A stretch of 64,000 nt of DNA, from IMG/VR virus record IMGVR_UViG_2681813318_000003; one strand, 5' to 3'. How positions within the stretch are numbered: the stretch's first letter is position 1; each line of letters opens with the position of its first letter. This DNA comes from a virus (lineage: Duplodnaviria; Heunggongvirae; Uroviricota; Caudoviricetes). The notes below the pieces were generated by a model, which was not told where the DNA came from, made no database searches, and saw only the letters and a program-made list of their open reading frames with translations. The position numbers were made by a program, and so were the translations under genes. Positions 4,568-46,504 of the stretch are shown piece after piece.

Positions 4568-5443
4568 TTAAATTTTTACATTGGTCAGTGCAGCGATAGC
4601 CTTATCGTGCTTATTCGCCAGAGAGCAGTACCACTTCACACGGGTACGTACTGCGTCTTTGTTCTGTACAGTACCAATGTTTTCAACAACGATACCTGCG
4701 TTATCGCCGCCATACAGACCAGTAACGCCGTTCTCTTCTGACAGATGCAGGCAATAGATGCTTGCTTTGCCAGCATCGGTCGGGATGAAGTCGTTGATGA
4801 TGAACGGAACGCCGTTATGACACAGCATCGGACGACCAAAGTTCTCCATCATGATTTCAGACGGACCTACGTTTACTGTACGCAGCAGCGCACGATAAGC
4901 ACGCAGGTGCTCTGAACGCATCATGATGCAGTCAGCACCAAGATCTTTCACCGCATCGACCAGTTCGTCGAACATAGAGAAAGTCATAGATGCACCGGCG
5001 ATATCGATCTTCTGATCTGCGTGCATCAGGCGTGGAATGCCGTCAAACGCTTTGTTGTTGGAGCTGGAGTCACCCAAAATCAGGTTGCGGCGGAACGCAC
5101 GAGCCAGACCTTTAACTTTCTGACGAACCTGAATAGCCAACTGGTTATTGGTGTCGGCCATAGTGGTTGCCAGGAATTTATCAACGTCTACGTCACCAGC
5201 CAGAATACGCAGTTTCGCAACGCATTCTTCGAAGGTTGCTGCACCTTCCGGGATGGTGTCGTTAACGTCGATGAAGGTAGCTTCACTCAGCGTTTTTTCA
5301 CGGTTGTACAGATATGCCTTTGAAGTAATTTTCATAAAAGGCAGGATGGCAAACAGGTCATCGCGATCGATGATGGTTTCAATCACGCCCTGTTCAAGTT
5401 CGTTGTTAGACAGCTTTTCAGCTTCTTCACGCAGTAATGGCAT
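4568..5443 (-). CDS. Major capsid protein (HK97 fold)
   Basis: 291-aa ORF with AAAGGGA SD; follows portal and scaffold in canonical order; terminator downstream consistent with high expression. Confidence 0.65.
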   Translation of the reverse strand: MPLLREEAEKLSNNELEQGVIETIIDRDDLFAILPFMKITSKAYLYNREKTLSEATFIDVNDTIPEGAATFEECVAKLRILAGDVDVDKFLATTMADTNNQLAIQVRQKVKGLARAFRRNLILGDSSSNNKAFDGIPRLMHADQKIDIAGASMTFSMFDELVDAVKDLGADCIMMRSEHLRAYRALLRTVNVGPSEIMMENFGRPMLCHNGVPFIINDFIPTDAGKASIYCLHLSEENGVTGLYGGDNAGIVVENIGTVQNKDAVRTRVKWYCSLANKHDKAIAALTNVKI

Positions 5444-5468
5444 CTATCAATTCCCTTTGATTTAGATG

Positions 5469-6356
5469 TTACTTAAGTCCAATTTTCCCCAGACCGGAGG
5501 CCAACTTATCCATAGTCGACTTGTTCTTCGGTTGGGATATTGTGTAGGTCGATTTGGAATGTGAGCCTACACCCTGCTTGGCTTCGCTACGCATCAATGC
5601 GTCAGCTTCCGGATCTGCCCGCACAATGCGTTCAATCGCGGATTCAAACGGCAACGGCTTACCTTCACCGTCAACCAGAACAGCTCGTTCTTTATGACCT
5701 GCCGGTTTGTCATAACCCACTACGCTACCGTCTTCACCCACTTCAAAATGAGAACCGTAGATCACGCGGGCTTTTGCCGGAGTCATCAGAACTTTGTCAC
5801 GTAGGAAGAGAGAGTTACTGAAGGAAGCGCCCACGGTCATCTCGACTAATTGAGATTTCAGTGATGCGTTTTCACTTTCCAGTGCTGCATAACGTTCGTC
5901 ACGCTGTGCCAGCTCTGCCTGGTGTGCTTCGATCATCTGTTTTTTAACAGCATCGAACTCACCACGACGCTCCAGTTCAGCTTGCTCCGCCTCACGACGT
6001 GCGTTTTCTGCGGCCTGTTCAGCTTCTAAAAGCTGGCGAGCACGCGCCGGGTCGATATCACCGTACTGAGCAAGCTGATCGGCCAATGTGCGCTCTTTCT
6101 CTTTGCGCTTCATGTTCTCTTTCAGCAGTTCAGCACCAGCTTTCTTGGTTTTGCGAAGTTCGACCAGTAACTCTTCATGAGTCATGCCAGCGTATTCGTC
6201 ATCACCCTTCGGCTGCTCTTTTTGTTCACCCTGCTTGTCAGGATCTTGTGTACTCTGCTCATTATCAGCAGCTACACCGCCAGCGCCCCCACGCTCATGC
6301 GCTTCAGCAACATCCATCAGACCACGACGGGCCAAAAGCATTTGCCACAGTTTCAT
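5469..6356 (-). CDS. Scaffolding protein
   Basis: 295 aa, strongly charged E/A/Q/R-rich central coiled-coil-like region; located between portal and capsid genes. Confidence 0.5.
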   Translation of the reverse strand: MKLWQMLLARRGLMDVAEAHERGGAGGVAADNEQSTQDPDKQGEQKEQPKGDDEYAGMTHEELLVELRKTKKAGAELLKENMKRKEKERTLADQLAQYGDIDPARARQLLEAEQAAENARREAEQAELERRGEFDAVKKQMIEAHQAELAQRDERYAALESENASLKSQLVEMTVGASFSNSLFLRDKVLMTPAKARVIYGSHFEVGEDGSVVGYDKPAGHKERAVLVDGEGKPLPFESAIERIVRADPEADALMRSEAKQGVGSHSKSTYTISQPKNKSTMDKLASGLGKIGLK

Positions 6357-6377: not shown

Positions 6378-7952
6378 TCACTCGTTCTCTTGAGTAGATG
6401 AGTCCCCATTCCCTCGGGGTTGATCTTGCCCGCTTTCTTGGGCCACACCACGATCATAAGTAAGTACTGACTTATTTTCAAGGGTATTTAGATCATTTTT
6501 TGGCGGAAAATTCAAGAGATCTTTATCAAATTCCTTTTTCATCGCCTCAGTAATGTTCGGGAAAATCTTCTCAATAAGCATTTCCATCTGGTGACGACGT
6601 ACAGAGTCCGGTGCCTGAAGTAATGACAGTTTCTCGGCAACAGAAAATTCATCTGTAAGGCCACGAATATCGAAACTTTCTGGATACGCAATTAAAGAGT
6701 GGTCTTCGTCCAGATCTACCCCCATCCATTTCGCAACCAGTAGCATGATTTGGCGTTCAGCCCTTTCCAGACGCTCTGCTTTTGTGACAAGCAAGCTATT
6801 TACACGCTGGAAGTCATACATTTTTGCGGCACCAGATGAGTTATCGATTCCCTGTGCGTTGTCCTGCTTCGTTCGCTCACCAGCTACACCAACTGAATGG
6901 TAGATTTCGTTAATCACCGTCTTAATCGTAGTGATGATCATCTGAGCTTGTTTCGGGTCTGGTGACAGATAAAACGGCTGGTTTCCACCTTCAGAATCGT
7001 AGGTGAAGACTCGCTTTGTGCCCATTTCAAGCACTTTAGTGTGGTTTTCATCACCAGGTAAAAGCGACTGTACCGGTATAGCCAACTGGCTAAATGTCTG
7101 ATCCTGAATAATGGCATCAAGGTTTGACAGATAGTTTGCAACCGCACGATCAAGATAAGCGATATCATCGATCAACGATGGGCTGAAATACGGTGATTCA
7201 CTTTCTCCAATACAATCAACAGGAAACACAGGAACTACGCCGAGATTATGCTCACCGCTATCCTCTAAAATAACTTTTGCCTGACGGCGACCTGCTCCAC
7301 CAGCGCCCTTCTTCACTTCCTCACGGAACAGATACCACTCGTTTTGTGTCCACAGACGATAACGTTGGTATTCCTGACCTGTAGAAGTAAAAGGATCTGC
7401 GTCATCACGAGCGACTTCCACAATTAACGCCCACAACATATTCCCGTCGTCGTCCCATGCCACATCCAGCATTTGCTGAGGTGAAATCCAGTAGGCGTAG
7501 GCGCGAGCATCTTTCTTTTTCTCGTCAGCTACTGACTCAACATCACCACTCATCGTGCTATCGACAACAACCCATATGCGACCGTAAATAGACGACTGCA
7601 AATCAATAGCGGCCATAAATAAGTCAATAGAGGCATTCTGGCGAGTCGCACGTTTCCAGAAATTGCGGATCTGCTCTGGTGCCTCTTCGATATTTCTATG
7701 AATGTCTTCTTTAAAGAGATATTTGTTGATGAGGTTTACCACCTCACGAGTGTGGTTGAAGCGATAAGCACGTTCAACTCGCTCCTTAAACTCCTGATCT
7801 CCCTCTTTAAAGTAACGAAAGATATTGTCTGTAAACCAACCACGCCCGCCAGCGTAAGTGCTGGCGAGGAAGTCCCAATGTTCTTTTTTCTTTTCGTATT
7901 CCGGGTGGCGTCGCGCCACCAGATCCTTAATTTGTTTGTCGTTCAATTCCAT
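6378..7952 (-). CDS. Portal protein
   Basis: 524-aa ORF immediately downstream of terminase large subunit; size and position typical of portal. Confidence 0.65.
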   Translation of the reverse strand: MELNDKQIKDLVARRHPEYEKKKEHWDFLASTYAGGRGWFTDNIFRYFKEGDQEFKERVERAYRFNHTREVVNLINKYLFKEDIHRNIEEAPEQIRNFWKRATRQNASIDLFMAAIDLQSSIYGRIWVVVDSTMSGDVESVADEKKKDARAYAYWISPQQMLDVAWDDDGNMLWALIVEVARDDADPFTSTGQEYQRYRLWTQNEWYLFREEVKKGAGGAGRRQAKVILEDSGEHNLGVVPVFPVDCIGESESPYFSPSLIDDIAYLDRAVANYLSNLDAIIQDQTFSQLAIPVQSLLPGDENHTKVLEMGTKRVFTYDSEGGNQPFYLSPDPKQAQMIITTIKTVINEIYHSVGVAGERTKQDNAQGIDNSSGAAKMYDFQRVNSLLVTKAERLERAERQIMLLVAKWMGVDLDEDHSLIAYPESFDIRGLTDEFSVAEKLSLLQAPDSVRRHQMEMLIEKIFPNITEAMKKEFDKDLLNFPPKNDLNTLENKSVLTYDRGVAQESGQDQPRGNGDSSTQENE

Positions 7953-7978
7953 TTGAATAACCTTAGATAATTACTTAC

Positions 7979-9235
7979 CTATCGAGAACCACCAAGAATA
8001 ACACGGTTTTTGACTGGATACCTACGATGTACTGGATAGCCCAATGCGTCTGCACTATGCTCAATGCCACCTGTCTTATCCATATCTCGTGTTCCAGGCT
8101 TGTAGATGACTTTTTCCAGTGAATCAATCAAATGCTTGCACTTCGGATCGATATACAGCCGGATATCTCCAGATGCGGTCATCAGCATTCGGTTAACAGC
8201 ATTAACACGATCCGCAATTGGCGGGTGCTTTTTCGAATAATCGACACGTAAGAATCCCTTCTCTTTGAATATGTCGACGTCAGACTCCCCGCGAGCATGT
8301 TGGCGATAAGCACCTGCCGGATCTGGAAATATCGTTATCTGTGATTTCCAGCGCCAGAAGCGTCTCTCAAGCTCATCACAAACCTCTGCCGTGTTAGAGG
8401 AAAAGAGCACCAATTCATCAATTGCCCATAGTTCACCATTTGGCTGAGGTTGCAAAATTACGGAAGACATCGGGTCAATGTTGAAGTCCTGCCCTACCCA
8501 TATAGGTAACCGAGGGTTGAACTGAAGCGGTTTTACATGCACGTTACGATCGAACGGGTAGTAAACGCGCCCGGACATGTTCTCAAAGCTGGCCAGGTAC
8601 TCCTGAGCGAACGATTTGGGGTCCATATCGTTCTTAGCAGCTTCAATTTCCGCCGTAGGTACAAACGGAGAATCGGCAGTTACAAACTGCCAGCTCTTCC
8701 ACTGTCCCTTTCTTTGCAGCTCTACGTTCTGGCCTATAGTCCACAGTTTGTGAAATTCCGAGAAGCCTTTTGGCGTACCAATGATCAGTGCACCGCCGCG
8801 TGTCGATGAAAGAGTAGGTCGTAACACCTTGTACCAAGTGTCAGCCTTCATATCCTGAAATTCATCAAGCACTACAAAATGCAACGCTACGCCGCGCAGA
8901 GTGTCAGGCTTATCAGCACCTTTGAGGGCGATCTCCGAACCGTTCTTCAACACGATTGTCATCGTGGTGTCGTTCTTTTTCCTAACCCACTTACGAGGCA
9001 GAACTTCCTGTAGATCGTCCCACAAAATCTGGCGAGCCATCTGGTAAGTAGGAGCGACATACCAGACCCTTTGCTTTTTTTCCTTTGCCGCCGCACGAAT
9101 AATAGTGGAGATCGACAACCGGGATTTTCCCCAGCGTCGACCAGCACAAACAACTTTAAATCGATGCGGAGACTGGAAGACTTTCATCTGTCCAGAATGC
9201 AGTTGCACAAGACTGAGCGAGGACGGGATTGCCAT
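7979..9235 (-). CDS. Terminase large subunit
   Basis: N-terminal Walker A-like VVCAGRRWGKS, ATPase plus nuclease size class, start overlapping the stop of the upstream small-subunit gene. Confidence 0.7.
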   Translation of the reverse strand: MAIPSSLSLVQLHSGQMKVFQSPHRFKVVCAGRRWGKSRLSISTIIRAAAKEKKQRVWYVAPTYQMARQILWDDLQEVLPRKWVRKKNDTTMTIVLKNGSEIALKGADKPDTLRGVALHFVVLDEFQDMKADTWYKVLRPTLSSTRGGALIIGTPKGFSEFHKLWTIGQNVELQRKGQWKSWQFVTADSPFVPTAEIEAAKNDMDPKSFAQEYLASFENMSGRVYYPFDRNVHVKPLQFNPRLPIWVGQDFNIDPMSSVILQPQPNGELWAIDELVLFSSNTAEVCDELERRFWRWKSQITIFPDPAGAYRQHARGESDVDIFKEKGFLRVDYSKKHPPIADRVNAVNRMLMTASGDIRLYIDPKCKHLIDSLEKVIYKPGTRDMDKTGGIEHSADALGYPVHRRYPVKNRVILGGSR

Positions 9236-9867
9236 TATTCGTCCTCCCCTTCACTTCCATCATCTGTCGCATCAAATTCGCTTAGAGCTTCTTCTTCCAA
9301 CGTCTCAAGCAATTCGTCATCGATGATTTCAGGCTCGTCGTCTTCCTGACGTAATTTCGCCACCTGGGAAGGCGTAAGCTCACCAAATACCAGATTCGGA
9401 ATTTCTTCCTCGTCATTTTCCGCATGATCCATGCCCAATGCTTTGGACGAAACTTCAAAGCATTTTGCAAGGGTATTACTGGCTCTCTGTAAGCTCTTGA
9501 GAGAATCCTCAATCGCCCCTAAAGGCTTACCCTCACGTTTGGCCGTAGTGACTTCGACCATCACCATCTGCCCCAACGCATACGCCCAGCCGTCATAACG
9601 TGTACGACGTTCTTCTATCTTTTCTGCACGGGCTTTAGCGCGAAGCTCTGCGTCAGATTTAAGAGACTCACGAACCATCTTCCCAACAGAGTCCGCGCCT
9701 TTCTCTAATCCTCGCTTTTTGAAATGTCTGGAGAGTGTTTCACGACGAATGCCGTACTCTTCCTCCAGCTTTGAGAGTGTATATTCGCCTGACGTCCATT
9801 TGGCTTCAGCTTCGGCCCACTCCGCTGGTGTCAGGCGAGTTTTTACCTCGTCTTTTTCGACCGTCAT
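9235..9867 (-). CDS. Terminase small subunit (DNA-binding, acidic C-terminus)
   Basis: 210-aa ORF directly upstream of and translationally coupled to the large subunit; SD AGAGGGA before ATG 9867. Confidence 0.5.
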   Translation of the reverse strand: MTVEKDEVKTRLTPAEWAEAEAKWTSGEYTLSKLEEEYGIRRETLSRHFKKRGLEKGADSVGKMVRESLKSDAELRAKARAEKIEERRTRYDGWAYALGQMVMVEVTTAKREGKPLGAIEDSLKSLQRASNTLAKCFEVSSKALGMDHAENDEEEIPNLVFGELTPSQVAKLRQEDDEPEIIDDELLETLEEEALSEFDATDDGSEGEDE

Positions 9868-9981
9868 AGATCCCTCTAAAACACACAGAGCGCGTCCATG
9901 CGCTCTAAAACAACTTGTTTACTGCATCTGCTAACCAACTTGTTTTCTGGGGTGTTTAATTAGGTCTGGCATGTCTTACGA

Positions 9982-10040
9982 AGCCTGCTTCCGTATATAT
10001 TTAATAAGTTACTTATTATTTATATATACAGATGCAGGTC
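9982..10040. terminator. Long AT-loop hairpin (bidirectional terminator-like)
   Basis: CCTGCTTCCGTATATA..TATATATACAGATGCAGG inverted repeat; a near-identical element recurs at 38654-38710. Confidence 0.45.
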
Positions 10041-10062
10041 TTTAAATAAGCTCCCAGACCGA

Positions 10063-10329
10063 TTACATCACCAGTAACTTCGCTTTGGCTCGACCTAAAG
10101 TGGTTAACCCAAGAGTTCGGCGGTGATAGCGATTGTCACTGCGTTGGCGCGTATGCCCTTTCTCCACCAGCCCCTTTTTTATCAGAGCGCGAATTGAGAA
10201 CTGGATACTTTGCTTGGTTGTCTTGTACGGCAAAACTTCAAGCAATTCGTCCAGGTCAAGTAGATGACCTCGCTCATAACCGAGATTGAGCGTTTTGATG
10301 ATGTCCTTTTGTTTATCGGTTAACGTCAT
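10063..10329 (-). CDS. Small basic DNA-binding protein (winged-helix-like, tentative)
   Basis: 88-aa ORF with SD AAGGA; basic C-terminus; upstream of the packaging genes. Confidence 0.3.
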   Translation of the reverse strand: MTLTDKQKDIIKTLNLGYERGHLLDLDELLEVLPYKTTKQSIQFSIRALIKKGLVEKGHTRQRSDNRYHRRTLGLTTLGRAKAKLLVM

Positions 10330-10338
10330 GGCAAATCC

Positions 10339-11229
10339 TTATGCCGGTAAAGCAATTTCTAACGGTTTATCCAAAGGTTGTTTGTCGAATGCCAGCAGTG
10401 GCAGCGTGTCAGGCAGTCGACGGCCAAAGTCAGGGTTTCGGTACACACCATACAACGGAGACGTAAAGCTCAGGTTGTGAATGTCCTTGAGCAGCTTCAC
10501 AATGCTGGCCTCGTCCACCAGACTGTCGGCAATGTCCTGAATCGTCGTGCCACGATTCCGCCCAGCTTTTGCCAGGGAACTGTTCTTGTGGTAGTCCGCC
10601 ACCAGATCACGCAGTGCACGGCGACGACGAGACTCGCTCATTGCGAACAACTCTTTGACGATCGCCTCGTTATCACCCGGGTCGGAACGGAAATGGCGCT
10701 GGAATACACGCAGTGCACTTTCATAGCTCTTCGGTCGCTCAGGGCGGATGAACTTAAACCCTGCTTTCATGGCGAAGGGATTGTATTTGCTCATCGAGGA
10801 CTGGATCTCAATGATTGGCCGGTCATGCATCCTGCTAACCAGGTTAATCATTCGATAAGAGACGCCTACGCCACGATACTGAGTATCCACAACTGAGCGA
10901 CTGATCACCGCAAAGTTGTTATTCACGTACCGACCCCAGTACTGGTTAGCCACGGTGGTATTAGTGGTTGGTTTCAACTTAGGAAACATGCGGTGGCGAG
11001 GTGCCAGCAGTAGTTTCGGGTAAGCCATAACCACGACGCCCACCAGACGGTCATCAAGTTCGCAGCGATAGTAAGTTGGCGCGAAAGGTTTGCCGTCTGT
11101 TTTGTAGTGAAGCGACTTAAGAGCGTGCCAGTCCTCTACAGTTCCCTTTGTGACAGTCATTCGCTCCAGAAAGTCCAGATGACGCGGAAACTCTTCAGGG
11201 CGGTAGCGTTTAATGATGATGTCCGTCAT
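10339..11229 (-). CDS. GNAT-like acetyltransferase-fold protein (tentative)
   Basis: Contains Q-Y-R-G-V-G-V-S resembling GNAT motif A (R/Q-x-x-G-x-G/A); translationally coupled to the upstream ABC ATPase gene. Confidence 0.35.
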   Translation of the reverse strand: MTDIIIKRYRPEEFPRHLDFLERMTVTKGTVEDWHALKSLHYKTDGKPFAPTYYRCELDDRLVGVVVMAYPKLLLAPRHRMFPKLKPTTNTTVANQYWGRYVNNNFAVISRSVVDTQYRGVGVSYRMINLVSRMHDRPIIEIQSSMSKYNPFAMKAGFKFIRPERPKSYESALRVFQRHFRSDPGDNEAIVKELFAMSESRRRRALRDLVADYHKNSSLAKAGRNRGTTIQDIADSLVDEASIVKLLKDIHNLSFTSPLYGVYRNPDFGRRLPDTLPLLAFDKQPLDKPLEIALPA

Positions 11230-11891
11230 AAATGAACCTCATCATGACTACCATTGTGATATTCCACCTTCACGCGTTCTTTGTAGTGCTTGGTGATCTG
11301 CATATCCGGGCGCAGCGCGTTCTTCAGGTCTTCGTGAGTCGTCGCCACCATTACCGTCGCACCAACCTTTCGAGCGGCACGCTGGAGGTTAGATGCCACA
11401 ACCTGAGCGGTTACACGGTCTAGAACAGCACCGAACTCGTCAGCAGCCCACACTTTAGCGCCTGACTCAATCAGTTTGGCAATCTTGAGACGATATTTCT
11501 GACCGTCTGACATTTCAGAAGGCTTGCGAACAAACAGATATGCATCGTTCAGACCAGCCATAGATAACAACCCAAGCGCATCGCTGGTCGTTTTGCCCAA
11601 CTGATCGATGACGTTAACCTCATTATCGAAGGTAAAATCATCGATGGAGGCTACAGACAGCCCTTCATCCTTCATCTGTCGTTGCAACTCGCGCAGCACA
11701 ACGGATTTGCCGGAACCGGATTGGCCGGTGATGTACACCACATCGCCCTGCTTCACTTCCAGCTCCAGATTGTCGTAAAGCGTCCACTCTTTTTCGTCCA
11801 GGCCAAGCCCGAACGACTCAGCGATTTCCAACGTGCGCGTGGTTTTATTTACGCGTGTCTGAAACGATACGTTGATGATGTATTTGCTCAT
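11226..11891 (-). CDS. Stand-alone ABC-type ATPase (no transmembrane partner)
   Basis: Walker A GQSGSGKS, ABC signature-like MSDGQKYRL, Walker B VWAADEF, H-loop ATTHEDL; 221 aa. Confidence 0.6.
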   Translation of the reverse strand: MSKYIINVSFQTRVNKTTRTLEIAESFGLGLDEKEWTLYDNLELEVKQGDVVYITGQSGSGKSVVLRELQRQMKDEGLSVASIDDFTFDNEVNVIDQLGKTTSDALGLLSMAGLNDAYLFVRKPSEMSDGQKYRLKIAKLIESGAKVWAADEFGAVLDRVTAQVVASNLQRAARKVGATVMVATTHEDLKNALRPDMQITKHYKERVKVEYHNGSHDEVHL

Positions 11892-12589
11892 ACAGCCATC
11901 TCCCCGGAAGAGATCTTCTCCGCATATGCCACAAATGCGTCTACCCCGCTTTCTCCCGTCATTTCTTCCATGTGGGCAAGCAAATCACCAACAACAATGG
12001 CAGAGCCAGCAGGAAGCGTTTTAAAGCCCAATACGTCGACAACACGTACTTCTTCCGCTGCAACTTCACGACTGATCTCGGTGTGTTCATCCTTCTGTCG
12101 TTTAGTTTCTTCGCCAAGATCGATAACTAGCGAGTCGGTGTCCATTTCTTCTGTCATGCTGCCAACGAGAACATTCAACTCACGCTCTTCAAAGCCGAAA
12201 ACCTCGATATCGTCCAGAACAAGCGACTCAAGCTCTTTCTGTAGCTTAATTGCATCGTAATCAATGCTGGCAAGTCGGTTATCTTCAAGGCGCTTCGCAC
12301 GAACCTCATCATCACTGAGATCATCGCGAACAATAACCGGTACGCGCTCAAGTCCAGCAAAAATTGCAGCCTCACGGCGGCCGTGGCCAGTAATAATTAC
12401 GTCGTTCTTATCGACCGTAATTGGCTGGTCAAATCCGCGCTTTTTAATGGCTGCGGCTAGATCTCGGATCTGCTGTTCATCATGCTTTTTGGCATTCATC
12501 TCATAGGGAATAAGATCTGCCGGGTCGCGATATACGATTTCAAACTTTTTGGTCATTACATACGCTCCTTGTAGTAGTCGACCAGCCAC
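11888..12589 (-). CDS. ParB-like nuclease domain protein
   Basis: ParB/Srx-type motif ITGHGRREAA (GxxRxxA) near the N-terminus; acidic C-terminal half. Confidence 0.55.
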   Translation of the reverse strand: MAGRLLQGAYVMTKKFEIVYRDPADLIPYEMNAKKHDEQQIRDLAAAIKKRGFDQPITVDKNDVIITGHGRREAAIFAGLERVPVIVRDDLSDDEVRAKRLEDNRLASIDYDAIKLQKELESLVLDDIEVFGFEERELNVLVGSMTEEMDTDSLVIDLGEETKRQKDEHTEISREVAAEEVRVVDVLGFKTLPAGSAIVVGDLLAHMEEMTGESGVDAFVAYAEKISSGEMAV

Positions 12590-13236
12590 ACCAGAGCCTC
12601 ACCAGCGTTCTCCATTTCATTACCGGTGTTAATAGCCTGCTCTTTGATGATGTTTTTTATGGTTTCTGCAACACGATCTGACGCATCGAAAGTTACTTTG
12701 AAGCGCATGGTCTGATGTTCCGCCCCCACACGTTCGGTTTTCTCTCGTTTGTCGGTATCGACAGGCTCATCACTACCACGAGACAACGCCTCCAGTGCTT
12801 CAAGGTCGATTGCCGCCTCTTTTGCTAAAACCATCGAGATTTCGTCGTCATACGGGGCGATTTCAGACAGTTGATAGTCAAGTTCTGACTGAATTTCTTC
12901 AATGAAGCGTTGCAATGCGATTTGGTCGTCTTCACCGTATCGCTCGTTGTCCACCAGTGACATCTGTTTAGCTACGACATCGCTAATTTTGCCCACAGAA
13001 AGCACTGGAACCGTTGAAATTCCTTGCTCAATAGCGGCACGCCAGCGATGTTCGCCGCCGAGGATTTCAAAAAATCCATCTTCAAGTTCACGAGCCAAAA
13101 TTGGCTTAAAAAAGCCCAATTTTTCGATAGAACCTTTCAGTTTTTCAAAATTCTGCGCACCAACCGAATTGGTGTTCCAGGTATTCGGGCGAAGGTTGGC
13201 AACATCAACCTGCAAAATCGTGATTTTTACATCCAT
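12556..13236 (-). CDS. ParB-like nuclease domain protein (second copy)
   Basis: ParB motif ILGGEHRWRAA; start trimmed to ATG 13236 (MDVKITI); paralogous architecture to the adjacent gene. Confidence 0.55.
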   Translation of the reverse strand: MDVKITILQVDVANLRPNTWNTNSVGAQNFEKLKGSIEKLGFFKPILARELEDGFFEILGGEHRWRAAIEQGISTVPVLSVGKISDVVAKQMSLVDNERYGEDDQIALQRFIEEIQSELDYQLSEIAPYDDEISMVLAKEAAIDLEALEALSRGSDEPVDTDKREKTERVGAEHQTMRFKVTFDASDRVAETIKNIIKEQAINTGNEMENAGEALVWLVDYYKERM

Positions 13237-13318
13237 TTTATTGCTACAATCCACTAAGTAATCACTTACTTATTATAATAGCCAAATAACATACAAAAGG
13301 CACTAAGGAAAGAGGTTT

Positions 13319-14878
13319 ATGACTGTTCGGATTGTATCTAACGCAGTTAATGCGCTTATTTCTGGCGCAGATGACAAGGTAAAGCAACTGGTGCAACAGA
13401 TGTTGAGCTACGAAGTCGAGACTGGCGACTGGAAGGGCACAAGCACAATGTTCAACTGGAGTAAAAACTCGTTCCCTGCAGGCTTTGCCAAGCCTGTAGC
13501 GGCGAACTTGAACAAGGCGGGCATCAAATGTGTTCATATCCGCAAAGACAAAGCCCCGGCGCTTGGAAAACCAAATCCGGCGGTTAACCCATTCCCATAC
13601 AATCCTGATTATGCGTATCAGGATCAGACTGTGGAAACACTGGTTCGAGAGGGAATGATGATTGCGCAGATCGCTACTGGTGGCGGGAAATCTAATGTTG
13701 CCTGCAAAGCAGCTGCACGTATCGCTCGAATGACATTATTTTTAACAACCCGCTCTGTTCTGATGTTTCAAATGGCCGAAAACTTCCAGAGATCCATCGA
13801 CTACCGCGCCAAAAATGGCGAACCGTGGTTAAAAGACCAAAAGGTTGGAGTCATTGGCTCGGGTGAGTTCCAGGTATCACGACATATCAACGTCGCTACA
13901 GTTCAAACTCTTGCAAGTTTCCTCGAAGAACCACCACGCGATGCAACACCAGATAAGAAAAGCTACCACCTCAAACGTCGGGAGTTGGTGAAACGCTTCC
14001 TTTCAAGTGTCTCTCTTCTTATTCTGGAAGAGGCGCATGAGTCTTCAGGCTCAAATTTCTATGACATCGCCAGATTATGTGTGAACGCAGACTATCGTCT
14101 GGCGCTTACAGCCACGCCGTTCATGAAGGATTCGACGGAAGCCAACATGCGCCTGATGGCGGTGGCCGGGCGAATTGAAATTAAAGTCACAGAAAAGTAC
14201 CTGATTGATCGAGGCATTCTGGCAAAGCCGTACTTCCTTTATCATAAAGTTGCCTACAAGCCAGACGAGGCCAGAATCAAGGCCGAACTTGCCAACAAAC
14301 ATCTCAATTTTAGAGTTGGTATGAGCACCGCCTACCAAAAGGCTTATCAGTTGGGGATCGTGTATAATTTGGGACGTAACGAGGCCATAGTGCGCGAGGC
14401 ATTGCTTTATAAGCAACATTCACTCAACTGCATGACTCTGGTTCGTCTTAAACGCCACGGGCAAATCCTGATGGAGATGATGAAGGAGTCAGGTCTTAGA
14501 GTTGATTTCATCTATGGGGAATCTAACCAGACGACAAGGCAAGCAAAGCTGAACAGTTTAGCGTCTGGTGAAATAGATGTTTTAATAGGCTCGACTATTC
14601 TGGATGTTGGTGTTGATGTGCCAAGCGTTGGTGCGGTCATTCTTGCTGGTGGTGGGAAAGCAGAAGTTGAAATGAGACAGCGTGTCGGTCGTGGCTTACG
14701 AGCCAAAAAAAATCAGGCAAACGTGTGTTTTATCACTGATTTCATTGACATTAGCAACAAATACCTGTTGTCTCACTCTTATGAGCGAAAACACATCATC
14801 GACACCACACCTGGCTTTGCAGAAGGTGTATTGCCTATTGATGGAGCATTCGATTTTGGAGTTCTGAAACGAGATTAG
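13319..14878 (+). CDS. Superfamily 2 DNA helicase (DEAH-like, UvsW or type III res-like)
   Basis: Motif I ATGGGKS, motif II LEEAHE, motif III TATP, motif VI QRVGRGLR; SD AAGGAAAGAGG before ATG. Confidence 0.7.
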   Translation: MTVRIVSNAVNALISGADDKVKQLVQQMLSYEVETGDWKGTSTMFNWSKNSFPAGFAKPVAANLNKAGIKCVHIRKDKAPALGKPNPAVNPFPYNPDYAYQDQTVETLVREGMMIAQIATGGGKSNVACKAAARIARMTLFLTTRSVLMFQMAENFQRSIDYRAKNGEPWLKDQKVGVIGSGEFQVSRHINVATVQTLASFLEEPPRDATPDKKSYHLKRRELVKRFLSSVSLLILEEAHESSGSNFYDIARLCVNADYRLALTATPFMKDSTEANMRLMAVAGRIEIKVTEKYLIDRGILAKPYFLYHKVAYKPDEARIKAELANKHLNFRVGMSTAYQKAYQLGIVYNLGRNEAIVREALLYKQHSLNCMTLVRLKRHGQILMEMMKESGLRVDFIYGESNQTTRQAKLNSLASGEIDVLIGSTILDVGVDVPSVGAVILAGGGKAEVEMRQRVGRGLRAKKNQANVCFITDFIDISNKYLLSHSYERKHIIDTTPGFAEGVLPIDGAFDFGVLKRD

Positions 14879-24155: not shown

Positions 24156-26189
24156 TTACTTAACCTGGTGGCCAGGTTTAGCACCAGCATCCGGGCTTAA
24201 CAGGAAGATATCTTTCCCGCCGGGGCCAGCAGCCATCACCATGCCTTCAGAGATACCGAAGCGCATTTTACGCGGAGCCAGGTTAGCCACCATAATTGTG
24301 TGACGACCAATCAGTGCCTGTGGGTCTGGATAAGCAGAACGGATGCCTGAGAAGACATTACGCTTTTCACCACCGAGATCCAGCGTCAGGCGCAGCAGCT
24401 TGTCAGAACCTTCAACAAACTCTGCGTTTTCAATCAGCGCCACGCGCAGGTCAACTTTAGCGAAGTCGTCAAAGGTGATGGTTTCCTGAATCGGGTCGTC
24501 TGCCAGTGGGCCAGTTACCGGTGCGGCTGTGGCTTTCACTTCTTCTTTGGATGCTTCCACCAGTGCTTCCACCTGTTTCATATCGATACGGTTATACAAT
24601 GCCTTGAACGGATTCACTTTATGGCCCAGCAGCGGTTGCTGGATACCATCCCAGGTCAGTTCTGTATTCAGGAATGCTTCTGCACGTTCAGTCAGTTTCG
24701 GCAGTACCGGTTTCAAGTACGTCATCAGCACGCGGAACAGGTTAATGCCCATAGAGCAAATCGCCTGCAGATCGGCATCGCGTCCTTCCTGCTTCGCCAC
24801 CACCCACGGAGCCTGTTCATCAACATAGCGGTTAGCCAGGTCAGCCAGTGCCATGATTTCACGGATAGCTTTACCAAATTCGCGGCTTTCCCATGCTTCG
24901 CCAATCACTTCAGCGGCATCAGTAAAGGTTTTGTACAGTTGCGGGTCAGCCAGTTCGCTTGCCAGCACGCCGTCAAAACGCTTGTTGATAAAGCCTGCAT
25001 TACGGGAGGCCAGGTTAACCACTTTGTTCACGATATCGGCATTCACGCGCTGAACGAAATCCTCCAGGTTGAGATCGATATCATCAATGCGCGAAGAGAG
25101 TTTCGCAGTGTAGTAGTAACGCAGGCTGTCGGCGTCAAAATGATTCAGCCAGGTGCTGGCTTTAATAAAGGTGCCGCGAGACTTGGACATCTTCGCGCCG
25201 TTCACCGTCACATAGCCGTGAACAAACAGGTTGGTCGGCTTGCGGAAGTTGCTGCCTTCCAGCATGGCAGGCCAGAACAGGCTGTGGAAGTAAACAATAT
25301 CTTTACCGATGAAGTGGTACAGCTCGGCGGTGGAGTCTTTCTTCCAGTATTCATCGAAGCTGGTGGTATCGCCGCGCTTGTCGCACAGATTCTTGAAGGA
25401 ACCCATGTAGCCAATCGGCGCGTCCAGCCAGACGTAGAAATATTTGCCCGGCGCGTTCGGAATTTCAAAACCGAAGTAAGGCGCATCGCGGGAGATATCC
25501 CACTGTTGCAGGCCGGATTCAAACCATTCCTGCATTTTGTTCGCCACCTGCTCCTGCAACGCGCCGCTGCGGGTCCATGCCTGCAACATTTCGCTGAAAG
25601 AAGGCAGATCAAAGAAGAAGTGTTCGGAATCACGCATTACCGGGGTAGCGCCAGAAACCACCGATTTCGGCTCGATCAATTCAGTCGGGCTATATGTTGC
25701 GCCGCAGACTTCACAGTTATCGCCGTATTGATCTGGCGCTTTACATTTCGGGCAGGTGCCTTTTACAAAACGATCCGGCAGGAACATGCCTTTTTCCGGG
25801 TCGTACAACTGAGAGATAGTGCGGTTTTTAATAAAACCGTTCTCTTTCAGGCGAGTATAGATAAGCTCAGACAACTGACGGTTCTCTTCGCTGTGCGTCG
25901 AGTGATAGTTGTCATAGCTGATGTTAAAGCCTGCGAAATCAGTCTGATGCTCATGACTCATTTCGCCAATCATCTGCTCCGGTGTGATACCAAGCTGCTG
26001 TGCTTTCAGCATGATCGGCGTACCGTGGGCATCGTCGGCACAGATGAAATTAACCTCGTGGCCGCGCATTCGCTGGTAACGAACCCAGACATCAGCCTGG
26101 ATGTGCTCCAGCATATGGCCGAGGTGGATTGAGCCGTTAGCGTACGGCAGCGCGCACGTCACCAGAATTTTCTTCGCGACTTGGGTCAT
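24156..26189 (-). CDS. metG: Methionine--tRNA ligase (host-type)
   Basis: 677-aa protein starting [31 protein letters not shown], class I HIGH motif, zinc knuckles CPKC/CEVC, KMSKS motif. Near-identical (a handful of substitutions) to Escherichia coli MetG as recalled from memory, not from a database search. The longer ORF to 26318 is an upstream read-through. Confidence 0.95.
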
Positions 26190-26346
26190 AGTAGGCATTA
26201 CTTCTTTGTAGTGAAAAGGGGCTTGATAGTAACAAAATGGCCTTATGTCTGCCATGTGATAACAGCATTTCTCATAAATGATTAAATGTCGTAGCTGGAG
26301 TACACTACAAGGCGACAATTGCGCAAATTAAAATAAAGGAGACGGG

Positions 26347-27447
26347 ATGAGCGAGTCCAAATCGCCGGATGCCCTGAGAGCAATGGTAGCCGGTACGCTG
26401 GCTAATTTTCAGCACCCAACCCTGAAACACAACCTGACTACGCTTAAAGCGTTACACCATGTTGCGTTGATGGATGACACACTGCATGTCGAACTAATCA
26501 TGCCTTTCGTGTGGAATAAGCCTTTTGAAGACCTGAAAGAGCAATGTAGTGGTGATCTGCTCCGTATCACTGGCGCAAAGGCTATTGACTGGAAGCTGTC
26601 GTACAACATTGCCACGCTTAAGCGCGTCAAAAACCAACCAGGCATTAATGGCGTTAAGAACATTATCGCCGTCAGCTCAGGCAAGGGCGGCGTGGGTAAA
26701 TCCTCCACGGCGGTAAACCTGGCACTGGCGTTGGCTGCTGAAGGTGCGAAAGTTGGTATTTTGGATGCCGATATCTATGGTCCATCAATTCCAACCATGC
26801 TGGGCGCGGAAAACCAACGTCCAACCTCACCTGACGGTACTCACATGGCACCTATCATGTCTCATGGCCTGGCAACCAACTCTATTGGTTATCTGGTCAC
26901 CGACGACAATGCAATGGTGTGGCGTGGACCGATGGCCAGCAAGGCGCTGATGCAGATGTTGCAGGAAACTCTATGGCCTGATCTGGACTATCTCGTTCTC
27001 GATATGCCGCCGGGCACTGGTGATATTCAGTTGACGCTGGCGCAGAACATTCCTGTAACTGGTGCGGTTGTGGTAACTACGCCGCAAGACATCGCGCTGA
27101 TCGATGCGAAGAAAGGCATTGTGATGTTCGAAAAAGTCGAAGTGCCGGTACTGGGTATCGTCGAAAACATGAGTGTGCATATTTGCAGTAACTGCGGTCA
27201 TCACGAGCCAATTTTTGGCACCGGTGGCGCACAGAAACTGGCCGAGAAATACAACACGCAGTTGTTAGGCCAAATGCCACTTCATATCTCTCTTCGTGAA
27301 GATCTGGATAACGGAACACCAACCGTTATTAGTCGTCCAGATAGCGAATTTACGGCTATTTATCGTGACCTCGCAGATCGCGTTGCTGCCCAAATGTATT
27401 GGCAAGGTGAAGTAATACCTGGCGAAATCGCATTCCGCGCAGTGTGA
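26347..27447 (+). CDS. apbC: Fe-S cluster carrier ATPase Mrp/ApbC (host-type)
   Basis: 366 aa, P-loop SGKGGVGKS, CxxC motif ICSNCGHHEP; divergent from metG with a 157-bp intergenic region as in the enterobacterial chromosome. Confidence 0.95.
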   Translation: MSESKSPDALRAMVAGTLANFQHPTLKHNLTTLKALHHVALMDDTLHVELIMPFVWNKPFEDLKEQCSGDLLRITGAKAIDWKLSYNIATLKRVKNQPGINGVKNIIAVSSGKGGVGKSSTAVNLALALAAEGAKVGILDADIYGPSIPTMLGAENQRPTSPDGTHMAPIMSHGLATNSIGYLVTDDNAMVWRGPMASKALMQMLQETLWPDLDYLVLDMPPGTGDIQLTLAQNIPVTGAVVVTTPQDIALIDAKKGIVMFEKVEVPVLGIVENMSVHICSNCGHHEPIFGTGGAQKLAEKYNTQLLGQMPLHISLREDLDNGTPTVISRPDSEFTAIYRDLADRVAAQMYWQGEVIPGEIAFRAV

Positions 27448-33087: not shown

Positions 33088-34773
33088 TCATTTAACGCAT
33101 TTGAAAACGTATACGCTGACTGTGATCCCTGTGTCTTCAAACTCGTTGGTAAACGACTTCCCTCTGGCATAAACGTAATTATCCATCGTCATCCAGTCCA
33201 GTATTGGCGCAGTGCCCGGCAATACTGCTACAAGACGCCCGCCGACTTTCAGATGCCCCAGCGCAGCCAGCGTGTGCTCTCTATGACGACCAAGCGAGTA
33301 CGGCGGGTTCATAACGATTTTGTCGAACTGATAACCTGCGTTGTCCTCAGACCACTTTATGAAGTCGCAGCAAATCGTGTTCGTATACCCTTTTCCACGC
33401 AGGATATCAGCGAAGAGAGGTGCGATTTCTATGCAGGTAACATCTTCCAGATCGGCGTTAATATAGGCCAGAAGATCCCCACGTCCGGCTTGAGGCTCCA
33501 ACAGCTTCTCACCAGGCTTCAATTCAGTGGCTCTGGCAACGTACTCAGCAATCAAGCGTGGGGTAGGGTAGAACTGGTGTGATTTTGTATCCGGTATTAA
33601 ACCGGTAGCCACAATCGTATTTAGCGTATGGCCGATCTCATACGGGAACTGCCAGTGCTTTTTCTCCTGCACGCCGCCAATGAAGCTCAGTGTGCGCTCA
33701 AGCTCTTCCACCTGCGACTTCTGGAGAGCTGAATCAGAGAAGTACCATACGCCTTTGTCTTTGCTCAATCGCCCGTCACGAAGCGCAGTGCGAACCGGCA
33801 TGGAGATCGTCTTCTGGATTAACCCGAACTGCTTTGGTGCCCGTGTTTTTGGCGCAGTTCGGCATGGCGCGGGAATTGCAGCAGGCATACTGTAAGCCAG
33901 CACCTCATTCAACTTCCAGGCCACGTCAGGATGTATTTCAAAGTGAACGTTGCCGTTCTTGAACATCTTCACGCGCATCAGATTTCCATCGACGTTCATC
34001 CAGTCACCGGTCTGGCAGTCGTTTGCCCGATACGCAGCTGATAGCACCTCAGCAGTGCGGTTGATGGTAATAAATTCTTTGTGCGCGAAGAAATGAAGCA
34101 AGACACGCAGATCGTCGATGTAGTCCTCTTTGCGATAGTTCACGCTAACGCTGTCCCGCCAGAAATCAGAAATGCAGTCAGCGATTATCAGACGCTCGCT
34201 GAAACCGTTTGTCTTATTTGTCTTGTGCGCAGGACTCAGCGCCTTAAACAAGCCATACACGCGCTCAGAGAGATATTTGTGCCTGTCATTCAGCAAATTA
34301 AGCATCGTGGGTATGACCGTTTCTGCTTTGAACTCCGGTACACCAACGAACTCTTTAACCTTCATCTGGTAGCCGGTTCTGTCAGTTTTGATGACTTCCT
34401 GTTTGCCCTCTATAAACTGCTCGCGCCACTCATCTCGACGGGAAGCTGGCATGATCAGCAAAACGTTAGTCATATCCGTGACCTTCCTCCAGTACTCGGC
34501 CCAAATATTCTGTTTCACCCATTCCAGATCGACTTTATCCAACCAACCTCGATTTAAACGCGAGCGATCTTCATCTGGTCGATGGTTTAGTCGCAGCAGG
34601 CGATTAATCATGTTGTGGCGTTCGTCGCCATAAACGAAGTCGTGTACCTGATACATGAAGGCGATCTCTTTCTCGCACTCGGCCACGATTTCGTGGATGA
34701 CATTCATTTCCTGACGATAGTCGATAGCCGTGTTTGAGCTGGCATCGTCGATGATGGAAAGGGCTGTATTCAT
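33088..34773 (-). CDS. DNA N6-adenine (or N4-cytosine) methyltransferase with large N-terminal domain, orphan
   Basis: C-terminal SAM-binding LLEPQAGRGDL and catalytic IVMNPPY; 561 aa; no restriction endonuclease partner nearby. Confidence 0.6.
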   Translation of the reverse strand: MNTALSIIDDASSNTAIDYRQEMNVIHEIVAECEKEIAFMYQVHDFVYGDERHNMINRLLRLNHRPDEDRSRLNRGWLDKVDLEWVKQNIWAEYWRKVTDMTNVLLIMPASRRDEWREQFIEGKQEVIKTDRTGYQMKVKEFVGVPEFKAETVIPTMLNLLNDRHKYLSERVYGLFKALSPAHKTNKTNGFSERLIIADCISDFWRDSVSVNYRKEDYIDDLRVLLHFFAHKEFITINRTAEVLSAAYRANDCQTGDWMNVDGNLMRVKMFKNGNVHFEIHPDVAWKLNEVLAYSMPAAIPAPCRTAPKTRAPKQFGLIQKTISMPVRTALRDGRLSKDKGVWYFSDSALQKSQVEELERTLSFIGGVQEKKHWQFPYEIGHTLNTIVATGLIPDTKSHQFYPTPRLIAEYVARATELKPGEKLLEPQAGRGDLLAYINADLEDVTCIEIAPLFADILRGKGYTNTICCDFIKWSEDNAGYQFDKIVMNPPYSLGRHREHTLAALGHLKVGGRLVAVLPGTAPILDWMTMDNYVYARGKSFTNEFEDTGITVSVYVFKCVK

Positions 34774-46424: not shown

Positions 46425-46504
46425 GTGTTTTCCTTTTGCTTATTGATGTGTTTAAACAAGTTGTTATCTTATTTGTTTAAACAAGGTTTACAAATCAAAG
46501 AGAA

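Follow-up and report, generated by a model that had tools for sequence, protein, structure and literature searches.

Proteins that join an ABC ATPase to a GNAT-fold acetyltransferase in one polypeptide occur in viruses and archaea, with MK0520 as the prototype, and we take this fused family to be COG2401. It was predicted in 2013 that a GNAT protein coupled to an ABC ATPase acylates a DNA base, and the authors of that prediction later termed the acyl modification uncharacterised (Iyer et al. 2021, PMC7824862). ParB-superfamily proteins are also found together with DNA-modifying enzymes. The Dnd and Dpd systems combine such a protein (DndB or DpdB), and in Dnd also the ABC ATPase DndD, with modifying enzymes (PMC10853773, PMC12839542), and a phage 5mYOX enzyme is active on dsDNA via a ParB-like protein that has no DNA-binding domain (PMC13229309).

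Here we describe a five-gene module in a stretch of phage DNA of 64,000 nucleotides (IMG/VR record IMGVR_UViG_2681813318_000003, called the window below). The sequence-only reading of this DNA had held that the combination could not be assigned to a described system. This was wrong, because the ATPase and the GNAT protein are the split halves of the known fused family. While the ABC-GNAT pair has been predicted since 2013 to carry out DNA-base acylation, the ParB triple fusions, the adjacency to terminase genes in at least four lineages, the ASCH neighbours and the low dN of the GNAT gene are new.

The module and its genes

The window is an SSU5-like phage-plasmid with 99.5% identity to phage Cyrano. 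Five ORFs lie on the minus strand between 10063 and 13254, immediately upstream of terS/terL, with stop and start codons overlapping or nearly abutting (Table 1); all five lie where the sequence-only reading had placed them. From ParB1 down to the 88-aa gene the junctions are TAATG (1-nt overlap), ATGA, ATGA and then a 9-nt spacer, which contains AGGA ahead of the ATG of the last gene. The start of ParB1 in Cyrano and in the RefSeq annotation is ATG 13236, giving 226 aa. ParB2 has a longer ORF (11888-12589), whose PHROG alignment starts at residue 12; its real start is the ATG listed in Table 1. The gap between the 88-aa gene and TerS is about 195 nt. The SSU5 record terminates within the AT-rich palindrome of this gap, and the Cyrano and SSU5 records both end at about position 10001 of the window. 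On the other side, upstream, the lineage has conserved the UvsW-like helicase as a neighbour, with an equivalent place in loci L003-L007. The arrangement is not due to chance, because relatives with only 40-44% identity to the window in their GNAT protein have the genes in the identical order.

Table 1. Positions of the module genes and neighbouring features in the window
Feature	Position	Strand	Description
TerL	7979-9235	-	Terminase_6N/6C, phrog_2; directly after TerS; context gene, conserved neighbour of the module
TerS	9235-9867	-	phrog_867; context gene, conserved neighbour of the module
Intergenic module-terS region	9868-10062	.	AT-rich palindrome and terminator-like hairpin
Terminator-like hairpin	9886-9907	-	
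AT-rich palindrome	9994-10026		Kept in SSU5 and Klebsiella pJN2-26
Winged-helix protein	10063-10329	-	88 aa, basic; stand-alone; predicted DNA-binding
GNAT-fold acyltransferase (predicted activity)	10339-11229	-	296 aa; helical insert at about 169-254
ABC ATPase	11226-11891	-	221 aa; stand-alone nucleotide-binding domain
ParB2	11888-12556	-	222 aa from ATG 12556; paralogous ParB/Srx domain
ParB1	12556-13254	-	ORF from GTG 13254; ParB/Srx N-terminal domain
UvsW-like DEAD/DEAH helicase	13319-14878	+	ResIII/DEAD/Helicase_C; divergent; context gene

The first two genes had been read as paralogous ParB/Srx proteins with a GxxRxxA motif, and this is borne out. Pfam ParB_N scored 49.9 bits in ParB1 and 35.0 bits in ParB2 (cutoff 26.3), and the N-terminal domains share 33% identity over 116 aa (E 6e-10). 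Their arginine boxes, GEHRWRA in ParB1 and GHGRREA in ParB2, both align to Spo0J/ParB box II. When ParB1 was aligned to the Spo0J/ParB/Noc CTP-binding domain, GEHRWRAA corresponded to box II and LVDNER to box III, and we regard the box II and box III-like motifs of the ParBs as candidate CTP-clamp features. ParB1 matched phrog_723 (E 2e-79) and ParB2 matched phrog_930 (E 2e-112). Outside its own family, ParB2 is most closely related to the ParB domains that phages fuse to methyltransferases (phrog_498 'DNA methyltransferase', E 5e-32; PADLOC MTase_II, E 2.7e-17). Both proteins are acidic (ParB1 pI 4.55, net charge -18; ParB2 pI 4.53, net charge -22), with highly acidic C-terminal halves.

With Pfam and NCBIfam models only the N-domain was matched, and no HTH_ParB or other HTH was found in either ParB; TIGR00180 reached 43 bits, below its cutoff of 58.45. 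There is no ParA gene in the operon or beside the ParBs. The two proteins thus do not qualify as canonical partition ParBs of the ParABS type, which have a central HTH for parS binding and a ParA ATPase alongside.

The third gene encodes a complete nucleotide-binding domain (Pfam ABC_tran 50.1 bits, cutoff 25). Walker A (G56QSGSGKS63), Q-loop (Q97), signature (M127SDGQ131), Walker B (V147WAADE152), D-loop (L157D158) and H-loop (H186) are all present in this order. Neither annotation nor matches revealed a membrane-domain or transporter gene among the five operon genes and their neighbours, in agreement with the earlier description of a soluble ABC ATPase that has all motifs and no transporter partner. 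The domain is nearest to NBDs of transporter and ABC-F type, not to Rad50/SMC. Aligned by hhalign with the ABC part of the fused proteins, it gave a probability of 100% and E 3.6e-69, with 48% identity over 214 columns. On this sequence evidence the ATPase is the split-off N-terminal half of the ABC-GNAT family, orthologous to the ABC half of the fusions.

The 296-aa protein is below the threshold of the Pfam GNAT models (Acetyltransf_10, E 0.037; 14.4 bits, cutoff 23.6), while distant fused relatives pass, such as P0235 with Acetyltransf_1 (25.6 bits, cutoff 20.7). Its AlphaFold model is confident (pLDDT 88, pTM 0.79) and has the mixed alpha/beta GNAT fold. Motif A of GNAT enzymes (R/Q-x-x-G-x-G/A) binds the pyrophosphate of CoA. 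In the model Q117YRGVGVS124 follows strand beta4 (106-114), at the beta4-alpha3 junction expected for motif A. Across 40 homologues of 41-83% identity R119 and G122 do not vary, nor do many other residues, and the equivalent R320 and G323 are invariant in the fused family. The GNAT fold with a motif A-like QYRGVGVS, proposed from the letters, is thus upheld by the model. With a pI of 9.8 and a charge of +15, the 296-aa protein is strongly basic. The alignment of its family with the C-terminal half of the fused family (hhalign E 2.7e-41, 275 columns) identifies it, at the level of sequence, as the split-off C-terminal half, and GenBank and JGI annotators label it 'ABC-type ATPase fused to a predicted acetyltransferase domain'. 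It is a predicted acyl-CoA-dependent transferase.

The 88-aa protein shows a three-helix bundle followed by a beta-hairpin wing, which confirms the small winged-helix-like protein of the earlier description. Its gene directly follows the GNAT gene throughout the SSU5/nickie/RHEph10 lineage.

Distribution, selection and genomic contexts

The module was present in 757 PLSDB plasmids from Klebsiella, Escherichia, Enterobacter, Yersinia and Salmonella, and the terminase/portal region in 763. It occurred in 247 of 5,426 complete E. coli genomes (4.6%), always on plasmids, and close relatives bear CTX-M and dfrA genes. It is also present in Pseudomonas phage nickie, which was isolated as infectious particles and has no plasmid record. 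The sequence-only reading had named a different fold of the 296-aa protein, or absence of the module from most relatives, as grounds to abandon it; the fold is GNAT, and among relatives the module occurs as widely as the packaging genes do. Among ten genes compared, the GNAT gene had the lowest dN (0.021, dN/dS about 0.012). The ABC gene had a dN of 0.030 (against Klebsiella pJN2-26), TerL 0.031, capsid 0.034 and portal 0.067. The GNAT gene belongs to the vertically inherited core of the lineage and not to its variable accessory genes.

In an exhaustive profile search most of the distant matches were fused ABC_tran-GNAT proteins, and more than 551 such loci were counted in IMG/VR. Most viruses with ABC-GNAT encode both domains as a single polypeptide, and the family is found in viruses of bacteria and in viruses of archaea. 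Four cluster representatives of 666-699 aa are ParB-Zn ribbon-ABC-GNAT fusions, and these triple fusions are new in this analysis. Their N-terminal profile matched ParB nuclease 5k5a (E 5e-6) and ParB 7bnk (E 6e-6) in the PDB, and by hhalign their ParB part gave 89% to ParB2 and 88% to ParB1 of the window. Because some viruses fuse all three in one polypeptide, we conclude that ParB, ABC and GNAT act together physically. The link to ParB is present in the SSU5-type lineage and the triple fusions, and in some of the Planctomycetota loci; among 80 fused loci a ParB was found in only one, by a single-sequence search of limited sensitivity.

Also new here, at least four virus lineages with no relation to one another have the split or fused unit next to terminase genes: the SSU5/nickie/RHEph10/Stenotrophomonas lineage, viral contigs with their closest genomic relatives among Bathyarchaeia MAGs (45 of 80), Planctomycetota loci, which also have a ParB_N gene, and the triple-fusion loci. 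In at least 24 contigs ABC-GNAT is fused to DNA polymerase B, and at other sites it adjoins Pol III alpha or lies inside a DnaB/DHH/gyrase module. ASCH-domain genes occurred in 11 of the 80 fused loci, about 47 of which offer enough downstream sequence to judge, and nine of these 11 genes were within 650 bp downstream and convergent; the link is confined to one lineage and to a minority of its loci. ASCH proteins act as N4-acylcytosine amidohydrolases (PMC6972931), and tRNA ac4C is also erased by ASCH proteins (bioRxiv 10.64898/2026.02.27.708502). These neighbours are a base-level hint toward acylated cytosine.

Possible acylation of phage DNA and alternative explanations

A role in DNA modification, which the sequence-only reading had put forward as plausible, is in our judgement the best-supported reading, with the function inferred from fold, orthology and context. 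It may be that the five genes form one machine which acts on phage DNA at the stage between replication and packaging and acylates a base before packaging, and we would place this a little short of probable. The more specific proposal is tentative and on the doubtful side: that virion DNA of SSU5-like phage-plasmids and hundreds of other viruses of bacteria and archaea bears an acylated base, possibly N4-acetyl- or N4-acyl-cytosine, written by a ParB-loaded ABC-GNAT enzyme, with ASCH proteins as erasers or readers in some lineages. The literature searched holds no chemical evidence of a modified base in any SSU5-like phage.

In such a machine the two acidic ParB paralogues, lacking a DNA-binding HTH, would serve as a nucleotide-gated loader or activator, a role modelled on the phage ParB that turns on a thymine dioxygenase on dsDNA, and DNA targeting might come from the winged-helix protein. 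ATP-driven dimerisation of the ABC domains would clamp the basic GNAT subunits on DNA and make a base accessible, and the GNAT would move an acyl group from acyl-CoA to the exocyclic amine of the base. Acyl donor and target base are guesses, with cytosine N4 as the best single guess for the target. The mark would be written after replication by an ATP-gated ABC-GNAT pair loaded by ParB-type clamps, and progeny DNA marked ahead of terminase packaging would be shielded from host nucleases in the next infection.

The position beside the terminase fits a packaging role as well as it fits acylation. The module could be an accessory of packaging initiation in which transferase chemistry on DNA is not the point. 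The ParBs would then be nicking nucleases or site-binding clamps at a nearby pac/cos region, the site would be read by the winged-helix protein, and the ABC-GNAT pair would be structural or regulatory. The genes terS/terL directly downstream, the conserved palindrome at which the linear records of SSU5 and Cyrano stop, and a conservation of the module equal to that of the packaging genes agree with it. Nuclease activity is also known among ParB/Srx domains, and in the PDB the fused ParB domain is closest to a 'ParB domain protein nuclease'. However, other viruses keep ABC-GNAT in replication modules far from the terminase or fused to PolB, most terminase-adjacent fused forms had no ParB (in the single-sequence search of limited sensitivity), and the invariant motif A and other residues, with the lowest dN in the GNAT gene, argue for catalysis, so we think this quite unlikely. 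We also consider it unlikely that the GNAT acetylates a DNA-bound protein and not a base, in a machine that still rides DNA. Nucleoid proteins such as HU (Alba or histones in archaeal hosts), or else terminase or portal, would be the candidate targets, and the effect would be stripping or remodelling of nucleoprotein ahead of replication or packaging, or regulation of the packaging motor. Terminase adjacency in four lineages and polymerase fusion or adjacency would fit any job that travels on DNA, and the very strong purifying selection suits a core morphogenetic role. But the ASCH neighbours indicate acylated cytosine and not lysine, and Mom is the best viral structural match. Bacterial and archaeal hosts also differ in their chromatin proteins, which leaves no one conserved host target; a phage-protein target would escape this objection.

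The GNAT target might be neither phage DNA nor a DNA-bound protein. Candidates are a host protein of defence or transcription (cf. AcrVA5, phiKMV Rac) and a cytosine of tRNA or rRNA; in the latter case the ABC domain would stand in for the helicase of TmcA/NAT10, the ATP-dependent ac4C writer. AcrVA5 and TmcA are enzymes with such non-DNA roles. There are phage GNAT precedents (Rac is cited in PMC7824862), the ASCH erasure of tRNA ac4C (bioRxiv 10.64898/2026.02.27.708502) would fit an RNA target, and the ABC domain resembles transporter and ABC-F NBDs more than Rad50/SMC. On the other hand, all informative contexts are DNA-centred (ParB fusions, polymerase fusion or adjacency, terminase adjacency), no defence or anti-defence family was matched beyond generic P-loop matches, and the gene is vertically inherited core; such a target seems very unlikely to us. 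The product names in GenBank, PHROG and RefSeq would make the module a plasmid partition ParB pair with the ATP-binding subunit of an ABC transporter. This is scarcely credible: operon and flanks have no membrane-domain gene, the ParBs have no ParA beside them and no HTH was found in them, the ATPase has its specific orthologue in the ABC half of ABC-GNAT fusions, and the module is also present in infectious-particle phages not recorded as plasmids, such as nickie. We rejected this naming as contradicted by the membrane-gene, ParA, HTH and orthology tests.

If acylation of phage DNA is true, phage-plasmids common in clinical bacteria would package acylated DNA, with effects on host range, escape from restriction and other defences, and spread of resistance genes. 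It would give a first function to a family widespread in bacterial and archaeal viruses, the acyl mark would join the natural DNA modifications as a chemically new class among those of phage DNA, and the ABC and ParB nucleotide switches would be shown to be recruited to DNA-base chemistry. Even with a protein target the gene pair is likely important for the phages, because its dN is below that of the terminase, capsid and portal genes alongside. The question is directly testable because the host phages are growable, engineerable E. coli phages.

Comparison with known systems

Phage Mu Mom (PDB 8bv8) is a GNAT-fold enzyme that puts a carbamoyl-methyl type group on adenine N6 in DNA. The GNAT protein of the window resembles it at fold level only, and no sequence match to the Mom family was obtained with PDB, Pfam or NCBIfam. 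Mom acts without ABC ATPase or ParB, and the GNAT protein here differs from it by a helical insert of some 85 residues and by an invariant residue set of its own. The RNA N4-acetylcytidine writers TmcA/NAT10 are similar in that a P-loop ATPase is coupled to a base-acetylating GNAT and ASCH acts on the product.

In phage ParB-methyltransferase fusions (phrog_498; PADLOC MTase_II PDLC03229) a ParB2-like domain is covalently joined to a DNA-modifying enzyme, and genes for such fusions are commonly near terminase genes. That enzyme is a SAM-dependent methylase, however, and ParB1 and ParB2 have no methylase domain. ParB176, the partner that 5mYOX176 needs for its action on dsDNA, consists of nucleotide-binding and C-terminal domains with no DNA-binding domain (PMC13229309). 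The window ParBs have the same two-part build with no HTH detected, a likeness at the level of the shared superfamily; in that system an Fe/2OG dioxygenase takes the place of the GNAT, and an ABC ATPase is absent.

Dnd and Dpd differ in chemistry (phosphorothioate or 7-deazaguanine), in their enzymes and in being cellular defence systems, compared with phage late genes here. DndD, an SMC-like ABC protein, contains a coiled coil, in contrast to the minimal transporter-type NBD of the window. No TGT-like (DpdA) gene was found in the operon or the window genes examined, and PADLOC gave no Dpd match.

The fused ABC-GNAT family has the most in common with the module: both halves are orthologous, the ABC-then-GNAT order is the same, and both are viral with DNA-centred neighbourhoods. 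The window differs in having two separate genes linked by an ATGA overlap, its relatives often insert small genes at the ABC/GNAT junction, and it adds two ParB paralogues and a winged-helix protein.

The five genes and their phage-plasmid

The sequence-only reading had described five translationally coupled genes, and we found all five on the minus strand where it had placed them, so this observation was confirmed in full. Only the starts of ParB1 and ParB2 were trimmed, according to the Cyrano and RefSeq annotation and PHROG alignments. The gene junctions are, in order, TAATG, ATGA, ATGA and a 9-nt spacer, and such overlaps and short spacer are consistent with coupling. Both proteins proposed as paralogous ParB-like proteins pass Pfam ParB_N, carry GxxRxxA and are indeed paralogues. 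Their alignment to the CTP-binding domain of Spo0J/ParB/Noc takes in a box III-like DNxR. Both are very acidic (pI 4.5), above all in the C-terminal halves, and no HTH was detected in either of them. The proposed soluble ABC ATPase passes ABC_tran, has all six motifs and no membrane partner, and is nearest by sequence to transporter-type and ABC-F NBDs. The 88-aa protein is a winged helix, as had been suggested. Database labels such as “partition protein” and “ABC transporter” are unsupported. PADLOC gave only generic P-loop and ParB-methylase matches for the module proteins. For the 296-aa GNAT protein, the NCBIfam search gave no match and the PDB sequence search gave noise only (AlkD at E about 1).

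Escherichia phage Cyrano matches the region at 99.5% identity, Salmonella phage SSU5 at 85% and an E. coli plasmid at 100%. On these phage and plasmid matches we take the window as an SSU5-like phage-plasmid. In PLSDB the region was found on 757 plasmids (Klebsiella, Escherichia, Enterobacter, Yersinia, Salmonella and others), and 247 of 5,426 complete E. coli genomes carry the module, which is plasmid-borne in every case. The module is on 757 plasmids, compared with 763 for the terminase/portal region; it belongs to the core of these phages and is no accessory gene.

The module genes are under very strong constraint. Against the Klebsiella relative pJN2-26 (about 81% DNA identity), GNAT had dN of 0.021 and dN/dS of about 0.012, ratios of this kind being rough because dS is saturated. 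In the ranking by dN, which saturation of dS does not affect, the ATPase had 0.030; the values for comparison were TerL 0.031, capsid protein 0.034 and portal 0.067.

Elsewhere in the window there are two cellular-type housekeeping genes, a full-length methionyl-tRNA synthetase (tRNA-synt_1g E 1e-165, with tRNA_bind domain) and an iron-sulfur carrier ATPase of ApbC/Mrp type. Scanning the window for Rfam families and tRNAs gave no matches. A 561-aa protein has a DUF4942 domain (E 1.7e-20) as its sole assignment. The thymidylate synthase homologue has 376 aa, about 100 residues over the usual length, and the model matched it in three stretches; genes for ribonucleotide reductase and SbcC/SbcD-like proteins lie near it, with a Rep3-type initiator and a RecA homologue in the same region.

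Positions of features in the window and in the compared contigs (L-numbers)
Sequence	Feature	Position	Strand
Window	ParB1	most likely start ATG 13236	-
Window	ParB2	most likely start ATG 12556	-
Window	ABC/GNAT gene boundary	11226-11229	-
Window	Interval between module and terS	9868-10062	
Window	AT-rich palindrome	9994-10026	
Window	Terminator-like hairpin	9886-9907	-
Window	Methionyl-tRNA synthetase gene	24156-26318	-
Window	ApbC/Mrp-type ATPase gene	26347-27447	+
Window	561-aa protein	33088-34773	-
Window	Thymidylate synthase homologue	43060-44190	-
Window	Ribonucleotide reductase genes	45282-48844	
Window	SbcC/SbcD-like genes	50230-53491	
Window	Rep3-type initiator	55043-56257	
Window	RecA homologue	59575-60648	
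L002	Insert at ABC/GNAT boundary	1235-1489	
L230	Insert at ABC/GNAT boundary	7164-7715	
L003	Insert at ABC/GNAT boundary	6961-7999	
L004	Insert at ABC/GNAT boundary	7705-7995	
L005	Insert at ABC/GNAT boundary	5646-5981	
L006	Insert at ABC/GNAT boundary	5393-5895	
L121, L124, L129, L134, L141, L146, L151, L155, L173	ASCH gene (Pfam PF04266)	just downstream of fused gene	
L096, L107, L178	ASCH gene, further loci		

ABC, GNAT and ParB domains in fused proteins

An exhaustive profile search built on 40 homologues of the 296-aa protein gave 889 cluster representatives. Past the close stand-alone relatives, most matches were proteins of 450-500 aa with the alignment starting near residue 200-235, and Pfam showed that ABC_tran precedes the GNAT region in them. 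The window ATPase matched the N-terminal half of an alignment of 26 fusions (E 3.6e-69, 48% identity), the 296-aa family matched the C-terminal half of the fused alignment (E 2.7e-41), and the domain order in the fusions is the gene order in the window. By these alignments, the ATPase and GNAT of the window correspond to a single protein divided into two genes. The existing GenBank and JGI label of the 296-aa protein is [quoted passage not shown]. A scan of viral contigs with the 296-aa family reached close relatives only, and the fused-family alignment was used for other lineages.

We set aside the idea that a programmed frameshift at the ATGA overlap links the ABC and GNAT products, because relatives carry whole genes inserted at this junction. 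The boundary is an insertion hot spot for small genes in the relatives, with none in the window; SSU5 has an 84-aa gene there, pJN2-26 a 183-aa gene, and an Ectothiorhodospira contig three genes, including Phage_gp49_66 and a RyR-domain protein.

Four representatives of 666-699 aa have an additional N-terminal domain of ~190 residues and, after it, a CPxC zinc ribbon. The profile of this domain matches solved ParB proteins (E 5e-6), and the domain aligns to ParB1 and ParB2 of the window with 88-89% probability. On these matches the four proteins are taken as ParB-ABC-GNAT fusions, and their domain order is again that of the window genes. Where context exists, the genes after the triple fusion are a small gene, TerL, portal and one that is Mu F-like; Planctomycetota genome bins have ABC and GNAT genes, then a ParB_N gene, then TerL. 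In contig L226, the triple fusion has an 88-aa gene upstream of it, which had no similarity to the window winged-helix protein. ParB, ABC and GNAT form one functional unit, which is viral and DNA-associated. Nicked Pseudomonas phage genomes (PMC11780129), considered as a lead to a ParB nickase, are those of unrelated phages with about 45 kb.

Genomic neighbourhoods and the region before terS

The order in the SSU5 lineage is helicase (divergent), ParB, ParB, ABC, GNAT, winged helix, TerS, TerL and portal, and it was kept in 80 of 80 close viral contigs, truncated ones excepted. It was also kept at 40-44% GNAT identity in Pseudomonas phage nickie, Rhizobium phage RHEph10, Stenotrophomonas phage BUCTxx99, the Ectothiorhodospira contig and a 3.3-Mb metagenomic contig. 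For the fused gene, TerL was the immediate upstream gene in 45 of 80 viral contigs, whose closest genomic relatives are in Bathyarchaeia bins. At least 24 contigs have the ABC-GNAT unit fused to DNA polymerase B, and in other viruses it adjoins Pol III alpha or sits within a DnaB/DHH/gyrase replication module. At the fused loci, ParB and replication genes were searched by neighbour clustering and Pfam/PHROG scans, single-sequence phmmer being limited in sensitivity. Every informative context of the unit is DNA replication or DNA packaging.

Unusual architectures were seen in the family proteins P0206 and P0182 (L009, L010), P0163 and P0155 (L011): DNA polymerase B-ABC-GNAT fusions in a Prim-Pol/RecA replication module, an intein with LAGLIDADG endonuclease inside the ABC domain, and a C-terminal TFIIB repeat, which suggests archaeal origin. 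Three forms of 880-910 aa (P0190, P0202, P0235) are extended at the N-terminus by about 440 residues. In these there is a P-loop NTPase, with a weak, sub-threshold match (E 0.015) to the A32 packaging ATPase of poxviruses, as well as a PD-(D/E)xK-like motif, which at most hint at another connection to packaging or to a nuclease. Of the 80 contigs L094-L173, 29 ended <=500 bp past the fused gene, often exactly at the gene end, which suggests a genome terminus or assembly-breaking repeat, like the SSU5 and Cyrano records.

Between the module and terS there is an AT-rich near-perfect palindrome, TATATATTTAATAAGT A ACTTATTATTTATATA, which is kept in SSU5 and pJN2-26 although overall DNA identity is about 81%. 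The linear GenBank records of SSU5 and Cyrano both terminate inside it (window ~10001). It could be a cos/pac site, a late operator or a promoter. A terminator-like GC-rich hairpin with T-run precedes the terS start codon by 19 nt; its stem is kept in pJN2-26, with differences confined to the loop, and it may keep the module transcript apart from the packaging operon or control read-through.

Predicted acceptor and comparison with known systems

The cofactor loop of GNAT is intact, and we infer that the acceptor is a DNA base. Mom is the best viral structural match of GNAT, the enzyme is strongly basic, and ParB2 is close to the ParB domains of ParB-methyltransferase fusions, all of which count toward a base. 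There is also an experimental precedent of a ParB-like protein without DNA-binding domain which activates a phage DNA dioxygenase on dsDNA (PMC13229309). ASCH genes were near the fused gene in 11 of 80 loci (about 47 evaluable), nine of them <=650 bp downstream and convergent, a count from the lineage with closest genomic relatives in Bathyarchaeia bins; ASCH proteins hydrolyse N4-acylcytosines (PMC6972931). From these points together, acylation of a base is favoured. The predicted reaction would be an ATP-gated, ParB-assisted transfer of an acyl group to the base, possibly N4 of cytosine, before DNA packaging, and we hold it tentatively.

Among the main rivals, acetylation of a DNA-bound protein by the same GNAT, set beside the Mom match and the ASCH genes, is unlikely. 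A role in packaging initiation with no DNA chemistry is more unlikely still, and a target other than DNA, such as host proteins or RNA, is quite improbable beside the replication and packaging contexts. Apart from the favoured base acylation, we looked at a hydroxymethyl-pyrimidine route. Nothing points to it, since the long ThyA homologue scores above the cutoff of the thymidylate synthase equivalog and has a DHFR gene beside it in a close relative. The ASCH genes often overlap the 3' end of the fused ABC-GNAT genes, and none was found in the window.

Literature on COG2401, the ABC-GNAT annotation and SSU5/Cyrano modification gave nothing on function, and PMC8969562 does not mention the module genes. 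Five features appear to be absent from the accessible literature: the split arrangement of five genes, two ParB paralogues and a winged helix among them; the triple fusions of ParB, ABC and GNAT; the repeated terminase adjacency across unrelated virus lineages; the ASCH link; and the exceptional sequence constraint. The function is so far a computational prediction, and the module matters as a common, strongly conserved one which is directly testable in E. coli. In Iyer et al. 2021 (PMC7824862), the authors' own earlier (2013) prediction is that GNAT coupled to ABC ATPase makes an uncharacterised DNA-base acyl modification. The module is not categorically new, because its parts and the pairing of ABC with GNAT are known and a role in DNA modification has already been predicted in print.
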